This document shows positions 29,828 to 46,545 of a stretch of 64,000 nt of DNA, one piece after another; position 1 is the stretch's first letter, and each line of letters begins with the position of its first letter. This DNA comes from Balneolaceae bacterium (GTDB lineage: Bacteria > Bacteroidota > Rhodothermia > Balneolales > Balneolaceae). Location of the stretch: the NCBI GenBank assembly GCA_007694095.1, contig RECI01000207.1:3217-67216 (forward strand), in the 5' to 3' direction. Position numbers and translations under genes: made by a program. Under the pieces are notes generated by a model. The model saw only the letters and a program-made list of their open reading frames with translations. It was not told the DNA's origin and did no database searches.

Positions 29828-31189
29828 TTATAAGGGCTGCAGTTCCCGGATTTCTTTTAAGCCTTCTTTTAGTTCATTTTCAGTAAAGCTGTGATCAGTA
29901 AGTTTGCCGGCAAAGTAGTCGTCATAAGCCTGCATGTCAACATAACCGTGGCCGCACAGGTTGAACAGGATCGTTTTTTCAACACCTTCTTCTTTTGCCT
30001 GGTTTGCTTCCCGAATCACCTGGGCAACAGCGTGAGTGGCCTCGGGAGCTGCAATGATTCCTTCCGATTTGGCCAACATAACACCTGCTTCAAAACACTC
30101 AAGCTGCTGGAGAGCTACAGCTTCAATCAACCCGTCTTTGAGCAGCTGACTGCACAGCACACTTGCCCCATGATATCTCAGGCCGCCCGCATGAATGGCT
30201 GCCGGTTTGAAATTGTGGCCTAGGGTGTACATCGGAAGCAATGGGGTATATCCGGCCGAATCACCAAAATCATACATAAATTCACCCTGGGTCAGTTTGG
30301 GGCATGATGCCGGTTCAACTGCAACAAACCGGGTATTTTTTCCTTCAGTTAAATTGTTTTTTAGAAATGGAAATGATATTCCTGCAAAATTCGACCCCCC
30401 GCCAAGCGGTGCAATTACCACATCGGGATAATCCCCGGCATACTCAAGCTGCTTTATGGCTTCCTGGCCAATTACTGTCTGATGCAATAAAACATGGTTG
30501 AGTACCGAACCCAGGGAATATTTGGTATCGTCGTCCATAACAGCCCGTTCGATAGCCTCAGAAATTGCAATACCAAGACTGCCGCTGGTTTCAGGATCTT
30601 CGGCCAATATTCTTCGCCCCGCTTCAGTCCGGTCACTCGGTGAAGGATACACCTCGGCACCAAATGTATTCATCATCACTTTCCGATAAGGCTTTTGATC
30701 ATAACTTATTCGGACCATATAAACCTCACACCGGATGCCAAATTGGGCGCATGCAAAGGCGAGTGCGGTTCCCCACTGGCCGGCTCCTGTCTCAGTAGTA
30801 ATACTTTTCACCCCCTCCTGTTTATTATAGTATGCCTGAGGCACAGCGGTATTTGGCTTATGTGAACCGCTGGGACTCACTCCCTCGTACTTGTAATAGA
30901 TTTTTGCCGGTGTACCAAGCAATTTTTCAAGACCAGTAGCACGGTACATCGGTGTCGGTCGCCAAATTTTGTATATCTCTCGTACTTCATCGGGTATTTC
31001 TACATATCGCTCTGTTGAAACTTCCTGCATGATGAGGCCCATAGGAAAAATTGGGCTTAGGTCACCGGGCCCTGCAGGCTGACCGGTTTTGGGATTCAGG
31101 GGAGGCAGAGGTTTATTGGGCATATCTGCCATGATGTTGTACCAATGCGTTGGAATGTCGGATTCATCTAATAAAATTTTTCTGTTCAT
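29828..31189 (-). CDS. TrpB-like PLP enzyme (TrpB2 type)
   Basis: [60 protein letters not shown]; start set at the ATG at 31189 (ORF track extends to 31219). Confidence 0.93.
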
Positions 31190-31445
31190 GAGATCATTTT
31201 TGATTTGAGGTATCACCATTTTTACAGGGAGATGATACGAATTTTTTGAATATGGGAATGATGTGTATCCAAAAAGTTTTCCTGCCTGCTGGGATGAAAA
31301 CCCCCTAAGACAAGTAGGCAGCTTATACTGTAGAATCCGAATAAACTCCGAGATATTCCTTGGCTCCGCGGCAACGATTCAACCTTCGTTTTAATTCACA
31401 AAATTGATACCTTGTCACAAAATTTTTGATGAATATTCTATCTTC

Positions 31446-32603: not shown

Positions 32604-32834
32604 CAGCCATTCGGATGAGGAACGATTTTGGAGTTTCCGGCTATTCAATAGAAGAGAACATTATAATATGAGGTATCTTGCGTCTTTATTTACAAAATCT
32701 CAAAAGAGCCCGGAACATTGTACGGAATGACATTTTTAGTCCAAGATTTACTGAAGAATCTGTCATGAAATATTATTACTATCCAATTCATTAATAAATA
32801 TTCTTTTATATAAATTTATCATTTACTTCCGTTT

Positions 32835-34481
32835 ATGGAAAATACGGGAACTCGCTTAAACGAAGCCGCTATAGATTTTAAAGAACAATTTGAAGTCAAC
32901 GGTTTTGCAGGCCCGGTAAAAATTTTTCCGGGTGCCCTGGCGGAAAAATTATCAAAGCAATTATCAAGGCAATTATCAAAATCACCCTCACCGGTGTGGT
33001 CAAAGGGGCATGCAGTTTCATCGAGAGATTATTATGATATTGCAACCAATCCAGCTATCCTGGATCGTGTATCTGCAATTTTGGGTGAAGATGTTATGCT
33101 ATGGGGTGCAAGCATGGTGAGCCGGCAGCCCGGCAATGTACATCCCTGGCATTCTGATATGGAAACTGTTGGAGGTATAGGCCGAACCGTTTCTGTTTGG
33201 TTGGGCCTGGATAATGTTAACTATAACTCATCACTGCAGGTTATCCGGCACTCCCACAAATTTGGTGTTACCGTCCAGGAGATGAGGCACAAAACCGGAA
33301 TCGACCGTTTAGATGTAAAACCGGAAATAGTGCTGAAATGGGCCAAAGAAATAAATTCCAGGGCAGGGCTTCTTACCTGTTCAATGAATAATGGTGATGC
33401 TATTTTCTTTGATGGAAACCTATGGCATGGAACAGACAACCTAAACCTGACAGGAACCAGAAAAGCGTTACTCATACAATATGCTACACCCGACCGTCTT
33501 ATTCAGGCTCCATCATACAAACATCTTGACTGGCCATTTCAGTTTCGGGATGATATTCGACCACCCTGTCTGATCGTAAGAGGCTCCGATAAATTTGGCG
33601 TTAACGATATTGTGGAACCTCCGTCTTCATCCAGTAACATCAAAAGCTGGATTGTACAACTGGATTTACCGCTTCAGGATGACAAAGAAAAAGGTTGGAA
33701 ACCTCACCATATACATCACGGATTTTCTCCGGCGATGGAAACTCTAACATGCCATGTATCCGTATTGAGCCCTGGCCGAACACCTCATCCGCCTCACAGG
33801 CACCCTGAAGAAGAGATTTTGATTGTGCTCGATGGTAAAGCCACTATTTTGATTGGTGATGACGTTGATCAGCAATCAAAGACCATGCACCGGGGTGAAT
33901 TTGTATATTATCCCGGCGGCCAAACCCACACCATCCGGAATGATTCCAATTCCAACATCACATATCTGATGTTCAAATGGCATAATAAAAACGTAAAACA
34001 ATCCGGCGATTTACTCCAAACCTCGATAGTTAACCAATCAAATGAGAATGGCCCAAGCCGGAATTTCGAATCCCGGTCATGGACTGTGAGAAGGTTATTA
34101 CAGGGCAAAACTGAACACCTTTCAAAATTACACTCTCATATGAGTATACTTAAACCGGGTGGTGGTTATGAACCTCATGCTGACAATTATGATGTAGCAC
34201 TTCTTGTTTTAAGCGGTACTGTGGAAACGCTTGGCCGAAAAGTTGGGCCTAATGGTGTAATATTCTATTTTACCGGAGAACCTCATGGAATAAAAAATAT
34301 TGGTGATGAAAATGCTTATTATCTCGTTTTTGAATTTCATGCCGGTACACATCAGAAGAATTTAAAACGTCTTATTAAAAAAGCTGTCTGGATAATACTG
34401 GGATACACTTCCCGGATTTTACCGACACCAATGCGCATTAAAGCAAGGAAAACACTTTCATCTCTTCGGGTCAAAACCTGA
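32835..34481 (+). CDS. PhyH-type Fe(II)/2-oxoglutarate dioxygenase fused to two cupin domains
   Basis: ILDRVSAILG, PWHSD, SVWLGLD, LWHGT..R; cupin 1 HPPHRHPEEE..QTH; cupin 2 EPHADNYD..EPH. Confidence 0.8.
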   Translation: MENTGTRLNEAAIDFKEQFEVNGFAGPVKIFPGALAEKLSKQLSRQLSKSPSPVWSKGHAVSSRDYYDIATNPAILDRVSAILGEDVMLWGASMVSRQPGNVHPWHSDMETVGGIGRTVSVWLGLDNVNYNSSLQVIRHSHKFGVTVQEMRHKTGIDRLDVKPEIVLKWAKEINSRAGLLTCSMNNGDAIFFDGNLWHGTDNLNLTGTRKALLIQYATPDRLIQAPSYKHLDWPFQFRDDIRPPCLIVRGSDKFGVNDIVEPPSSSSNIKSWIVQLDLPLQDDKEKGWKPHHIHHGFSPAMETLTCHVSVLSPGRTPHPPHRHPEEEILIVLDGKATILIGDDVDQQSKTMHRGEFVYYPGGQTHTIRNDSNSNITYLMFKWHNKNVKQSGDLLQTSIVNQSNENGPSRNFESRSWTVRRLLQGKTEHLSKLHSHMSILKPGGGYEPHADNYDVALLVLSGTVETLGRKVGPNGVIFYFTGEPHGIKNIGDENAYYLVFEFHAGTHQKNLKRLIKKAVWIILGYTSRILPTPMRIKARKTLSSLRVKT

Positions 34482-34511: not shown

Positions 34512-34638
34512 GCATTAAGCAATAGGCGAAAAAGACTTCCGAAGTCTCTCTTCATTTTTTTAAAACTTCGATTGTTTAATCTATACGGTATTCTTTTGCA
34601 AGTTCGAAAGACTTCGGAAGTCTATCGCTTAATCCGGG
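34512..34638. repeat. REPIN/MITE-like element, copy 1
   Basis: AGACTTCCGAAGTCT (34533-34547) and its reverse complement AGACTTCGGAAGTCT (34609-34623), 61 bp apart; flanks match 46420-46545 in inverted orientation. Confidence 0.85.
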
Positions 34639-34791: not shown

Positions 34792-36372
34792 TCATGCCTG
34801 TTTTACATGCTGATTTACCATCCGCTGTATGCCCAAAGGATTGCCTTCTTTCAGTTCATTGGGAAGCATGGCATCGGGAAAATCCTGGTAGCAGACAGGC
34901 CTGCTGAACCTGTAGATGGCTGCTGTTCCTACGGAGGTGGATTGTGACGAAGTACTGGCCGGGTATGGACCACCATGCATCATTGAAGAACATACTTCCA
35001 CGCCGGTAGGATAACCGTTAAAGATCAGGCGGCCTACCTTGCGTTCAAGAATCCGGATGAGTTCTTCATACGCGGCAAATTCTTGTTCTGAACCGTGGAT
35101 GGTAGCCGTTAAGTGGCCCTGAAGCTTTCCGGCGATAGTTAACATCTCTTCCTTCCCGGATACATTTACAAGAAGTGTGGAAGGACCAAAGATTTCCTCA
35201 TCTAGCTTATCATGACTTTGGAATGTTTTGTAATCTGTTGTATAAACGCATGCCGAGACCTGGTTGTCTTTTTCTGATAACCGGCCGTCTGCAGTTTTTT
35301 CAATACCGGGAATTGTTTCAAGTTTTTGCAATCCTGTAATGTAATCATCTTTAATTCTCCCGGAGAGCATTGTTCCTGCCGGGATAGCCGCTATATTATT
35401 TTGCAGATTATTCAGAAATGCGTCAGCCTCATCAGATTTTTTTGTAATAATCAATCCGGGACTGGTGCAAAACTGGCCAACACCAAGCGTTACAGAATTG
35501 GTGATTCCGGAAGCGATTTTTTCACCCCATTCTTTTAAGGCTCCCGGTAAAATAAATACAGGATTGGAACTTCCCATTTCTGCAAAAACAGGAATCGGTA
35601 TCTCCCGTTGATTGGCAGCATCAAAAATAGCCTTGCCCCCTTTGAAAGAACCTGTAAACCCAATTGCGGTTATTTTTGGATGTTTCACAACATCCATACC
35701 CACCTGATTGGAAACACCCTGCAACAGTGAGAAAACACCGTCCGGCATGTTTGATTTTACAGCTGCTTTCAGGATTGCTTTCGCAACAATTTCTGAGGTG
35801 CCCGGATGCAGGGGATGTGCTTTTACAACTACAGGACAGCCCGCTGCAAGAGCCGAAGCCGTGTCACCACCGGCCACGGAAAAAGCCAATGGAAAATTGC
35901 TGGCACCAAAAATTCCTGCAGGCCCAAGGGGAATCTGCATGTAGCGCAGGTCAGGTTTCGGCACCGGTTGCCTGCCGGGGATGGCCGTATCTATTCGGGC
36001 ATCAACCCAGGAACCTTCACGTACTACATCAGCAAATAATTTTAACTGGTTTACGGTACGCCCCCGTTCACCTGTAAGCCGGGCTTCAGGCAGGGCAGTT
36101 TCCAACATACAACGTTGAATGAGCTCATCGCCAAAATTCAGTATTTCATCAGCGATAGCTTCCAGGAAAGAAGCCCGCTCCTCATTCGATTTCATCCGGT
36201 ATGGTAAAAATGCTTCGTCTGCCTTGGATACAGCACGTTCAACTTCATCCGGTGTGGCTGATTTAAAGTGTGTTTCAAGCAGGGATTGGTCAGCGGGGTT
36301 TACAGCCTGGAATGTTTCCGATCCCTGTCCTGAATGATCAAGTCCAATAAAGTTAAGGCCTGTTAAAGTCAT
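34792..36372 (-). CDS. NADP-dependent aldehyde dehydrogenase (alpha-ketoglutaric semialdehyde dehydrogenase-like)
   Basis: ASNFPLAFSVAGGDTASALAAGCPV, FTGS..GG, EMGSSNP, GVGQFCTSPG, EEIFGP, HGGPYPAS, RPVCYQ. Confidence 0.9.
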   Translation of the reverse strand: MTLTGLNFIGLDHSGQGSETFQAVNPADQSLLETHFKSATPDEVERAVSKADEAFLPYRMKSNEERASFLEAIADEILNFGDELIQRCMLETALPEARLTGERGRTVNQLKLFADVVREGSWVDARIDTAIPGRQPVPKPDLRYMQIPLGPAGIFGASNFPLAFSVAGGDTASALAAGCPVVVKAHPLHPGTSEIVAKAILKAAVKSNMPDGVFSLLQGVSNQVGMDVVKHPKITAIGFTGSFKGGKAIFDAANQREIPIPVFAEMGSSNPVFILPGALKEWGEKIASGITNSVTLGVGQFCTSPGLIITKKSDEADAFLNNLQNNIAAIPAGTMLSGRIKDDYITGLQKLETIPGIEKTADGRLSEKDNQVSACVYTTDYKTFQSHDKLDEEIFGPSTLLVNVSGKEEMLTIAGKLQGHLTATIHGSEQEFAAYEELIRILERKVGRLIFNGYPTGVEVCSSMMHGGPYPASTSSQSTSVGTAAIYRFSRPVCYQDFPDAMLPNELKEGNPLGIQRMVNQHVKQA

Positions 36373-36424
36373 ATTTTTAAATTTTTTGTTGAAAAAAAGA
36401 ATAAGTACTTAAAATGTAAAGTTT

Positions 36425-37258
36425 TCAGTTACCAACATAATTTACCAAAGTTCCGATATGGTCAATCGTTATTCGTACTTCATCACCTGTTTCAAGGGTA
36501 AAATTGTCTGGCGGAACAATACCGGTTCCGGTCATCAGTAAACATCCGTCAGGAAAAGTAGTTTCCATGTACAAATAACGTACCAGATCCTTGAATTCAC
36601 GCTTGATCTGGCTTACATCCGTTTCGCCTTCAAATACTATATTTCCACGAATAATCTCCAGGCGAATACGCGTGTCATTCGGTAAAGCGGCTCCCGGCAC
36701 ATAAATACATGGGCCGATGGCAGCTGCCCGGTCGTAGCTTTTTGCCTGTGGCAGGTAGAGTGGGTTTTCCCCTTCTATATCCCTGGAACTCATATCATTG
36801 CCTATAGTATATCCAATAATTTCTGCATCTGAGTTTATCAGCAGAGTTAGCTCCGGTTCCGGGACATTCCATCGTGAATCTTTTCTGATTCTTACTATCT
36901 CCCCGGGGCCTGCTGCCCGAAAAGCCATAGATTTGAAAAACAGTTCAGGCCGGTCAGCATGGTAAACACGGTCATAAAAATTGCCTCCGCCCGAATGTTT
37001 GGATTCATCCATTCGTGCCTCCCTGCTTCTATAATATGTGACACCTGCAGCCCATATCTCCTGGCTGCCAATAGGTGCGATTAATTCATTTTCAATTCGT
37101 TGACCGGCATCCGGAAAAGGGGAAAGATCCCTGGTAATATCTTTTAAATAGTCGTGCAGGTTGCCCCTGTTTATTAATTTATCCCAGTTTTCATTGAAAA
37201 GATAATAGTTCAGTTCATGTTCGACCAGAATTCCACTTTTTGTGTTATATATTTTCAT
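36425..37258 (-). CDS. Fumarylacetoacetate hydrolase-family protein (2-keto-3-deoxypentonate dehydratase-like)
   Basis: QEIWAAGVTYYRSREAR, RPELFFKS, WNVPEPEL, GNDMSSRDIEGENPLYLPQAK, LMTGTGIVP. Confidence 0.85.
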   Translation of the reverse strand: MKIYNTKSGILVEHELNYYLFNENWDKLINRGNLHDYLKDITRDLSPFPDAGQRIENELIAPIGSQEIWAAGVTYYRSREARMDESKHSGGGNFYDRVYHADRPELFFKSMAFRAAGPGEIVRIRKDSRWNVPEPELTLLINSDAEIIGYTIGNDMSSRDIEGENPLYLPQAKSYDRAAAIGPCIYVPGAALPNDTRIRLEIIRGNIVFEGETDVSQIKREFKDLVRYLYMETTFPDGCLLMTGTGIVPPDNFTLETGDEVRITIDHIGTLVNYVGN

Positions 37259-37290
37259 AGGAAGGAAGGTTGTATAAAGGCGTGGTTCAA

Positions 37291-38628
37291 TTATAAAATA
37301 ATAAATCTCAAAATGGTCAGGAATATCATAGCCGAAAAACCGAGCACCGCCGATCCAATGGTTTGAAGCTGATATCCCTGGCTTACACTCATTCCACTCA
37401 TTTGTGTAACTACCCAGAAGAAGCTGTCGTTGGCGTGAGATACCACAGCCGATCCTGCACCAATGGCAATTACCATCATCGCTTTAGCCAATTCGGTCTC
37501 CAGGCCCATATCAGGTACCAGGGGAGCAAGTATGGATGCAGTAGTGATAAGTGCTACAGTGGATGAACCCTGTGCTGATTTAATGGCCGCAGCTGTGAGG
37601 AAAGGCAGCCAGATACCGAAACGGGATCCTCCGATCATTGTCCCTAAAAGAACACCTATGTCGGAACTTTGCAAAACTTTGCCGAATGCACCACCCGCAC
37701 CGGTAATCAGTATAATAATGGCTGCGCTTTGAAGTGCCTTGCCAACCCAGCCGCTGGCACCGAACATGGATTTATCCAGCTTTTTTGGCAGCAGAAAAGC
37801 GAAAAACATACCCACACATAGTGCTGCCACAGGGTGGCCAATGAAACCGATGAACGTTTTAAATTGACCGTCGCCGAAAGGTTCTGTGGGATAGTTGCCA
37901 ATGGATCGCAATACGATAAGGATGATGGGAATAACAATTGGCAGAAACGATTTAAAGGGAGATGGGGCGCCAATGATTTTTTGTTCTACCTCTTCTTTTT
38001 GCAGTTCTGGTTCGGGGTCTATATACACTTTCTTTCCTATGTATTTAGTAAAGAAAATGATAACAACAAGGGCGCCTGTACTGGTAAATAATCCCAGCAG
38101 CATAACCATGCCGAGATCAGCCTGTAGGAGTCCTGCCGCAGCGATAGGCCCGGGAGTTGGCGGCACCATGGTATGAGTGGCAGTTAACCCCATGGAAAGT
38201 GCAATGGCCGTGCCGGCAATGGACAGGTTGGCTTTTTTTGTGAGCGCCTTGTTAAGTGAAGCCAAAATAACAAACCCGCTGTCGGCAAATACAGGGATCG
38301 ATACGATATAACCGATCACAGCCATGGCCGTGTGTACACTTTTTTCCCCGATCCAAATCAATATCCGGTGTGCCAGGGCGTATGCCCCACCCGAATTCTC
38401 AAGGAAAACCCCGATAATAATGCCGATGATGATAATAAGGCCAATTTGCCCTAAGGTACCGCCAAATCCCTCATTGATGGCAAGTATTATCTGCTCTGCA
38501 GGCATACCCGAACCTATTCCAAATAAAAATGCAGCGGTTAACAATGCGAGAAAAGGATGCAGGTTATACCGGGCTGTGGAAACAACTATGAAAACTATGC
38601 AAAGCAGAATCAGGATTACGGTGAGCAT
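37291..38628 (-). CDS. GntP-family sugar-acid permease
   Basis: LHPFLALL, GFGGTLG, HTMVPPTPGP, TGAGGAFG, AQGSSTVA, SHANDSFFW. Confidence 0.93.
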   Translation of the reverse strand: MLTVILILLCIVFIVVSTARYNLHPFLALLTAAFLFGIGSGMPAEQIILAINEGFGGTLGQIGLIIIIGIIIGVFLENSGGAYALAHRILIWIGEKSVHTAMAVIGYIVSIPVFADSGFVILASLNKALTKKANLSIAGTAIALSMGLTATHTMVPPTPGPIAAAGLLQADLGMVMLLGLFTSTGALVVIIFFTKYIGKKVYIDPEPELQKEEVEQKIIGAPSPFKSFLPIVIPIILIVLRSIGNYPTEPFGDGQFKTFIGFIGHPVAALCVGMFFAFLLPKKLDKSMFGASGWVGKALQSAAIIILITGAGGAFGKVLQSSDIGVLLGTMIGGSRFGIWLPFLTAAAIKSAQGSSTVALITTASILAPLVPDMGLETELAKAMMVIAIGAGSAVVSHANDSFFWVVTQMSGMSVSQGYQLQTIGSAVLGFSAMIFLTILRFIIL

Positions 38629-46419: not shown

Positions 46420-46545
46420 CCCGGATTAAGCGACAGACTTCCGAAATCTTTCGGGTTCGTGAAAGAAGCCCTTAAAGATGAAAAGACCGAAGTATTAGAA
46501 AATGAAGAGAGACTTCGGAAGTCTTTTTCGCCTATTGCTGAATGT
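46420..46545. repeat. REPIN/MITE-like element, copy 2 (inverted relative to copy 1)
   Basis: AGACTTCCGAAATCT (46435-46449) and AGACTTCGGAAGTCT (46510-46524); ends CCCGGATTAAGCGA and TTTTTCGCCTATTGCT are shared with copy 1. Confidence 0.85.

Follow-up and report, generated by a model that had tools for sequence, protein, structure and literature searches.

What is the function of a single polypeptide in which an Fe(II)/2-oxoglutarate (2OG) dioxygenase domain is joined to two cupin barrels and a strongly basic C-terminal tail? The question is raised by a gene at positions 32835-34481 (+ strand) of a 64,000-nucleotide stretch of the genome of a Balneolaceae bacterium (contig RECI01000207.1 of assembly GCA_007694095.1, positions 3,217 to 67,216; hereafter the window), and it was addressed here by computational analysis of the gene, its relatives, and their genomic surroundings. 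In the reading we favor, to which we assign a probability of roughly 55%, the product is a cytoplasmic three-barrel non-heme-metal enzyme from a widespread, uncharacterized family that takes part in the assembly of glycans (polysaccharides or glycoconjugates). The enzyme is probably a glycan-tailoring hydroxylase, likely acting on a cell-surface polysaccharide.

Domain architecture, metal sites, and integrity of the fusion

The coding sequence is an uninterrupted open reading frame (ORF) of 548 residues plus stop, present once in the window's genome, that encodes in order a PhyH domain, cupin 1, cupin 2, and the basic tail. The sequence-only reading had described a three-metal-site ORF with one PhyH and two cupin domains, and its coordinates, its length, and every motif quoted there match the ORF listing and the Pfam results. 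The N-terminal PhyH-type Fe(II)/2OG dioxygenase domain (approximately residues 10-262, nt 32862-33620) is identified by Pfam PF05721 (54.2 bits against a cut-off of 22, residues 61-202) as well as by profile matches and Foldseek, and the bicupin half by Cupin_2 (PF07883, 79.9 bits against a cut-off of 27.2) over two matched stretches. Cupin barrel 1 (approximately residues 285-392, nt 33687-34010; best Cupin_2 stretch 310-379) has the canonical site H321-x-H323-xxx-E327...H365, read here as H321-R-H323-PEE-E327 followed by H365 (ligand codons at nt 33795-33815 and 33927-33929). Cupin barrel 2 (approximately residues 410-505, nt 34062-34349), the second Cupin_2 stretch, has the variant site H448-x-D450-xx-D453...H484, read as H448-A-D450-N-Y-D453 followed by H484 (ligand codons at nt 34176-34193 and 34284-34286), and includes a weak JmjC_2 match (Pfam) at residues 437-462.

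Conservation of the three sites was evaluated in a MAFFT alignment of 118 full-length homologues with 41-95% identity. H106, D108, H198, and R209 in the PhyH domain, H321, H323, E327, and H365 in cupin 1, and H448, D450, D453, and H484 in cupin 2 are each invariant (118/118), as are W105, E110, N202, H318, G444, and Y445; the linker residues P226, P234, G250, and N257 are also among the invariant positions. As judged from these sequences, the invariance of all the proposed ligands is far in excess of chance. H106-S-D108 in the PWHSD motif (nt 33150-33158) provides the proximal His and the Asp of the 2-His-1-carboxylate iron triad, and H198 in the LWHGT motif (nt 33426-33428) the distal iron ligand. 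R209, 11 residues past H198 (the two spanning nt 33426-33461), is paired in HMMER alignments with the EctD Arg located after the distal His; in PhyH-type enzymes that Arg binds the C5 carboxylate of 2OG, and the same role is predicted for R209.

Fe/2OG halogenases have Ala or Gly in place of the carboxylate ligand (HxA/G). As position 108 is occupied by Asp, and not by Ala or Gly, the site is of the hydroxylase rather than the halogenase type, which bears out the preference for hydroxylase chemistry expressed in the sequence-only reading. A SyrB2/CytC3-type halogenase was rejected because D108 is invariant and because the match to the 'chlorinating enzyme' family TIGR01762 reaches only 25.4 bits against a cut-off of 226. 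Together, the sequence and the predicted structure argue strongly for Fe(II)/2OG hydroxylase activity in the N-terminal domain. In the bicupin, cupin 1 has the full set of ligands of the canonical motif 1 (HxHxxxE) and motif 2 (His), whereas the ligand set of cupin 2, a predicted metal site, is invariant yet non-canonical. The bicupin could equally be a metal-stabilized binding module rather than a catalytic one, and that the three sites would catalyze successive steps of one pathway is pure conjecture.

An AlphaFold2 model computed from a 109-sequence alignment (mean predicted local distance difference test score, pLDDT, 91.5; predicted template modeling score, pTM, 0.78) begins at the N terminus with a barrel of mixed alpha/beta type, continues with two all-beta barrels, and ends in a two-helix tail. 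When compared with the PDB using Foldseek, the PhyH half matches ThoJ (6zyl) with a target-normalized template modeling score (TM-score) of 0.66, and the bicupin half (residues 285-505) matches 1sq4, YlbA, BacB, OxdC, and AerE with E values of ~1e-13 to 1e-14 and target-normalized TM-scores of 0.64-0.71. No structural analogue was found over the whole length, the query-normalized TM-score being at most 0.35 in the PDB and at most 0.30 in the viral library. Profile searches of the PDB gave concordant relatives: ThoJ (4e-10), EctD (5e-10), human PhyH (1e-7), CytC3 (4e-7), and SyrB2 (~1e-6), with cupin 1 matching MncA (5e-7) and OxdC. Neither a solved structure, nor an NCBIfam family, nor a paper describing the whole architecture was found (PDB by sequence, profile, and fold; NCBIfam; literature), in line with the earlier statement that no characterized protein combining PhyH with two cupins was known. 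The protein is thus composed of known superfamilies in a new, strictly conserved combination.

All of the NCBIfam matches are below threshold, and three candidate assignments were discarded: an EctD orthologue (TIGR02408, 32 bits against a cut-off of 336.5), an (S)-ureidoglycine aminohydrolase (NF008376/TIGR03214, 34.1 bits against 338 and 28.7 against 200), and an HEPD-like phosphonate enzyme, for which there was neither a matching fold nor matching neighbors. Searches with either half alone retrieved only same-family fragments or split copies, and no stand-alone relative with a name.

The basic C-terminal tail (residues 506-548, nt 34350-34478) begins past the conserved E500-F-H502 and is predicted by AlphaFold2 to form two helices, 508-528 and 531-547 (pLDDT ~68-80); residues 503-548 include 12 K/R and one D/E. 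Across the family, the tails have a median length of 45 residues, a non-conserved sequence, and a mean net charge of +7.4, and no transmembrane-like hydrophobic stretch is present in any of the 118 members. For the best 18-residue segment of each tail, the median hydrophobic moment is 0.57, and in 73 of the 108 tails it is higher than in 95% of shuffles. The tail had been described as basic and amphipathic; the charge is confirmed for this protein, and the amphipathicity holds only family-wide, the tail of the window protein itself not standing out from its shuffles (see below).

A scan with one genome per GTDB species found relatives in at least 504 genomes, representing more than 12 phyla, with carriers among the Balneolaceae, Rhodothermales, Gemmatimonadota, Acidobacteriota, Verrucomicrobiota, Planctomycetota, Actinomycetota, Chloroflexota, Dormibacterota, and Myxococcota, the Alpha-, Beta-, and Gammaproteobacteria, and the Saprospiraceae; three of the carrier genomes are from cultured isolates. 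An HMMER search of 1.84 billion cluster representatives returned 363 clusters at 50% identity (E <= 1e-30), and a word-indexed search at least 440 proteins, the best 120 of which are nearly all 500-600 aa long, with the same PhyH + Cupin_2 annotation and 41-95% identity. The architecture is therefore widespread, not rare, and is annotated as 'cupin domain-containing protein.'

These numbers bear directly on whether separate PhyH and cupin genes were joined by an error of assembly or gene calling, the condition under which the description of the gene as a natural fusion would have failed. Split versions do exist as overlapping adjacent PhyH and bicupin ORFs (P0146 and P0144), and in loci L092 (5199-6762) and L094 (5234-6708) the adjacent PhyH and bicupin ORFs overlap by 4-23 nt; the splits at these two loci may be either true translationally coupled halves or frameshift errors in long-read assemblies. 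The fusion is nevertheless not an artifact, because the same architecture recurs as an unbroken ORF across independent genomes (at least 504 species genomes, 363 clusters, independent assemblies, and cultured isolates). In addition, the three barrels pack together in a single AlphaFold2 model of good confidence (pTM 0.78) and the linker residues named above are invariant, leaving an artifactual origin with a negligible probability.

Glycosyltransferase fusions and gene neighborhoods of relatives

The molecules on which the family acts are indicated, first, by natural fusions. Twenty-seven members, all from metagenomic gene predictions, are far longer than 548 aa, and most of them carry an added glycosyltransferase domain: Glyco_tranf_2_4 in 5/27, GT2 in 4/27, GT4/GT1 and TOD1/MUCI70 in 3/27 each, and GT92 in 1/27. 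Sulfotransferase, methyltransferase, and ABC ATPase domains occur in one member each and radical SAM in two. The radical-SAM matches, together with P0138 (370 aa), represent fused or adjacent radical-SAM/SPASM domains, which hint at a minority peptide-modification context or, alternatively, at gene-calling read-through. The fusion partner is found at either end of the PhyH-bicupin unit. It precedes the unit in GT2_4(-GT92)-PhyH-bicupin proteins (P0099, which is 45% identical over 495 aa, P0230, P0270, and P0294) and in TOD1/MUCI70-PhyH-bicupin proteins (P0254 and P0277); it follows the unit as GT4 in P0285, as TPR-GT4 in P0251 (1293 aa), and as a sulfotransferase in P0250. These natural fusions are the strongest functional clue: as independent fusions have been made to unrelated glycosyltransferase folds, the PhyH-bicupin unit is argued to act on the same molecules as the transferases.

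Fusions of this kind would also be expected if the enzyme were a hydroxylase of proteins or peptides, one that primes glycosylation (or sulfation) by the fused or neighboring enzyme, or that tailors peptides made by the ribosome and modified after translation (RiPPs). In LH3, and in the Skp1 prolyl hydroxylase with Gnt1, a hydroxylated side chain is subsequently glycosylated, and a hydroxylase-glycosyltransferase fusion, as in LH3/PLOD3, is the hallmark of such hydroxylation-primed glycosylation. Furthermore, ThoJ, the best match of the N-terminal domain in both sequence and fold, is deposited as a non-heme monooxygenase and belongs to the thioholgamide (RiPP) pathway; a few members have a radical-SAM/SPASM domain either fused to them or next to them; and a tail this basic could be a binding site for nucleic acid or an acidic protein. 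However, the similarity to ThoJ is remote (~19% identity, profile E value 4e-10), no precursor-peptide or target-protein gene recurs nearby, and the clearest operons, at loci L074, L030, and L092, serve the export of lipid-linked polysaccharides, with Wzm/Wzt and a phosphoglycosyl transferase for initiation. We therefore regard a protein or peptide substrate as quite improbable.

The second line of evidence comes from the genes surrounding the relatives. In a census of 131 nearest-neighbor ORFs from 80 genomic loci, the top Pfam families are all glycosyltransferases (GT2, 5; GT4/GT1, 4; GT8, 2; Glyco_tranf_2_4, 2), whereas among 131 control ORFs taken 6.5-10 kb away at the same loci no glycosyltransferase family reaches two members. 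The adjoining GT2 proteins are of the TuaG/WcaA/EpsE/PglI type, extenders of lipid-linked oligosaccharides. The most complete example is found in Bauldia (L074), where an initiating sugar transferase, an epimerase/dehydratase, an AsnB-like amidotransferase, a GT4, and the ABC-2 permease Wzm are followed by the PhyH-bicupin gene and then by a Wzt/TagH-like ATPase, GT2, GT4, GT4, and GT2; the complete polysaccharide locus thus holds three GT4 and two GT2 genes. Here, the PhyH-bicupin gene lies between wzm and wzt, with 4-nt stop/start overlaps on both sides. In an acidobacterial locus (L030), genes for Wzm, Wzt, and a GT2 precede the PhyH-bicupin gene on one strand; at L057 the gene is also beside wzm/wzt; and in a gammaproteobacterium (L092), the split gene is located among three GT2 genes, a UDP-xylose-synthase/ArnA-like dehydrogenase gene, and a capsule-synthesis gene. 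The surface-glycan association that the sequence-only reading had offered as a hunch thus gains support, by way of relatives, from the glycosyltransferase fusions, the wzm/wzt loci, and the enrichment of glycosyltransferases among the neighbors.

Otherwise, gene neighborhoods are largely unconserved across the family. An ABC ATPase was considered as a specific partner and rejected, as those present in 13 loci are mostly generic and distant, with Wzm/Wzt sets only at L030, L057, and L074. Likewise, a conserved partner was sought among the unannotated neighbors of 335-566 aa, which proved unrelated in an all-against-all BLAST comparison except for two syntenic Acidobacteria copies.

The scarcity of glycan genes at most loci bears on a further explanation, in which the protein is a soluble oxygenase of a free small metabolite (an amino acid derivative, a compatible solute, or a sugar acid) and the glycan contexts reflect secondary recruitment. 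Approximately 85-90% of the loci lack glycan genes, and the closest solved relatives, EctD, PhyH, and GriE, hydroxylate small molecules. The neighbors of the gene in the window, which encode an aldehyde dehydrogenase (ALDH), an FAH-family enzyme, and a GntP permease, suggest sugar-acid catabolism, and a relative at L002 is near a KDPG-type aldolase and a GntP permease. Conversely, no catabolic or biosynthetic partner recurs across phyla, the ALDH operon of the window is convergent with the gene and not co-transcribed with it, and it is hard to see on this basis why there should be independent fusions with a sulfotransferase and with glycosyltransferases of at least five families. We consider a free small metabolite an unlikely substrate; for the small amine that had been suggested as one option in the sequence-only reading, nothing was found that points to one.

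In the favored reading, by comparison, the fusions and the neighborhoods of relatives support a glycan intermediate as the substrate with moderate confidence. The PhyH domain would hydroxylate a C-H bond in a sugar residue, or in a substituent attached to a lipid-linked or nucleotide-activated glycan that is still growing, and the enzyme would meet this intermediate on the cytoplasmic side of the membrane. The bicupin would bind two more metals and hold the carbohydrate, perhaps adding a second step that depends on metal, and the basic helical tail would probably keep the enzyme, by electrostatic attraction, at the anionic inner surface of the membrane or at a polymer of like charge. We infer hydroxylation as the chemistry, a glycan as the substrate of the stand-alone copy in the window, catalysis by the cupins, and association with the membrane.

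Several observations weigh against this assignment. A glycan context is present at only ~10-15% of the loci, and the neighbors in the window and in its two closest syntenic relatives (L001 and L012) are purK and the ALDH/FAH-family/GntP set, with no glycan genes; in particular, the window gene, situated between purK and the ALDH gene, is not part of a wzm/wzt polysaccharide locus. Sugars are not the substrates of the nearest solved relatives: EctD, PhyH, ThoJ, and SyrB2 act on small molecules, CoA esters, or peptides. The fused proteins are known only as metagenomic gene predictions, the tail of the window protein has a hydrophobic moment (muH) of 0.42, close to that of its own shuffles (z = 0.3), and the function of every family member is predicted from sequence, model, and context.

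The gene in its own genome

Within the GTDB family to which the window belongs, the gene was found in none of 80 sampled genomes, three of them near-complete and from the same genus; it is therefore a patchy accessory gene in this lineage. The purK region of the three same-genus genomes lacks synteny with that of the window and thus offers no empty site for comparison. In the closest syntenic relatives, L001 (8001-9638) and L012 (10001-11578), the flanking genes are 80-93% identical and the PhyH-bicupin gene itself only ~71%, indicating that the gene evolves markedly faster than its flanks.

The window gene stands alone after purK and is convergent with the ALDH/FAH-family/GntP set, and the AT-rich gap and REPIN-like (repetitive extragenic palindromic, REP) element by which it had been said to be bounded were both found. 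The upstream intergenic gap (32604-32834, 231 bp, + strand), which is presumed to hold the gene's own promoter, has a GC content of 0.33 compared with ~0.44 in the flanking coding sequence. Scans for sigma-70 promoters and terminators gave nothing above shuffles, and no Rfam family (riboswitch or other RNA) was detected in the flanks. Downstream, between the convergent gene ends and not part of the enzyme, is a dispersed REP-doublet or MITE-like (miniature inverted-repeat transposable element-like) element (34531-34626, unstranded), recognized by its paired palindromes: GACTTCSGAAGTC occurs as a pair 76 nt apart at 34534-34622 and recurs at 46436-46523. The pair gave 29 exact pattern matches in the 4.56-Mb genome compared with 0 for a control pattern. 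The dispersed element is ~90-125 nt long, with two such palindromes separated by 55-70 nt and a conserved AT-rich core, and both copies in the window are located between convergent genes.

The 12-bp triple repeat noted within the coding sequence (32947-32982, + strand), which encodes KLSK-QLSR-QLSK, is real: Tandem Repeats Finder reports 32947-32980 with period 12, 2.8 copies, and 90% matches. It corresponds to a four-residue insertion (QLSR/LSRQ) in helix 33-49 that is missing in all relatives, even in the 95%-identical P0002. The repeat is a recent lineage-specific in-frame duplication, the copy number of which varies between close strains.

Two features of the wider surroundings are recorded here. 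On the - strand at 34792-38628, the aldehyde dehydrogenase (526 aa), FAH-family enzyme (277 aa), and GntP permease (445 aa) genes are co-oriented and resemble a non-phosphorylative route by which sugar acids or pentoses are oxidized, with 2-oxoglutarate as its end product. Two genes upstream of the PhyH-bicupin gene, at 29828-31219 (- strand), a 463-aa pyridoxal-phosphate-dependent (PALP) enzyme of the long-TrpB2-like type is encoded, with ~93% identity in relatives.

Significance and relation to known systems

To our knowledge, very few examples of Fe(II)/2OG oxidation of bacterial surface glycans are known, such as KdoO and LpxO. Here, a conserved family in more than 12 phyla, with three invariant sites, is repeatedly tied to glycosyltransferases, a sulfotransferase, and Wzm/Wzt exporters. 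If glycan hydroxylation is indeed its role, the family would bring new tailoring chemistry to polysaccharide biosynthesis, provide a function for hundreds of genes labeled only 'cupin domain-containing protein,' and account for the permanent union of a 2OG oxygenase with a two-metal bicupin. The link to glycan biosynthesis is specific and testable, with cultured carriers such as Oceaniferula spumae NT6N, Pseudohoeflea suaedae YC6898, and Aporhodopirellula rubra CECT 8075 and the compact wzm-gene-wzt locus as test systems.

Comparison with characterized enzymes places each half of the protein in a known superfamily. EctD, PhyH, and ThoJ share with the N-terminal domain the double-stranded beta-helix fold, the HxD...H triad, and an Arg ~11 residues past the distal His. 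They differ in being single-domain proteins of ~300 aa, ~19% identical, without a bicupin or a basic tail, and their substrates are small molecules, CoA esters, or peptides. The halogenases SyrB2 and CytC3 align over the N-terminal 120 residues (TIGR01762, 8e-6; CytC3, 4e-7 by profile), but they have lost the carboxylate ligand that is invariant here as Asp108. The ureidoglycine aminohydrolase family (1sq4 and YlbA), BacB, OxdC, and MncA have the same tandem cupin barrels, and OxdC and MncA also share the canonical HxHxxxE...H metal site of cupin 1; none of these bicupins is fused to a 2OG oxygenase, the identities are 12-18%, and the H-x-D-x-x-D...H set of cupin 2 is unusual in comparison with them.

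With respect to context, the family resembles the WbdD-type tailoring enzymes of Wzm/Wzt O-antigen systems in its adjacency to wzm/wzt (L074, L030, and L057) and its multidomain glycosyltransferase/TPR fusions. The membrane anchor of WbdD is a basic amphipathic helix, like the family tail. However, WbdD is a kinase/methyltransferase without sequence relationship to the PhyH-bicupin proteins, and the contextual likeness comes from relatives and is absent at the window locus.

With respect to chemistry, the closest parallels are KdoO (the 3-hydroxylase of 3-deoxy-D-manno-octulosonic acid, Kdo), LpxO, and the collagen hydroxylase LH3/PLOD3. These enzymes belong to other 2OG-oxygenase subfamilies than PhyH, lack a bicupin, and gave no sequence match in any search made; what they exemplify is a glycoconjugate building block hydroxylated in an Fe(II)/2OG reaction, or a hydroxylation step that is coupled with a glycosyltransferase. 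By analogy, an as yet unrecognized 'hydroxylate-then-decorate' class of bacterial enzymes may be envisaged, though only tentatively, in which the PhyH domain would add a hydroxyl to a glycan residue or a protein side chain, the fused or neighboring glycosyltransferase or sulfotransferase would use that hydroxyl as its acceptor, and the cupin center or centers would add a redox or isomerization step. Such a three-metal, single-polypeptide machine would have no characterized counterpart and, in this still doubtful reading, might be a bacterial analogue of the LH3/PLOD logic.

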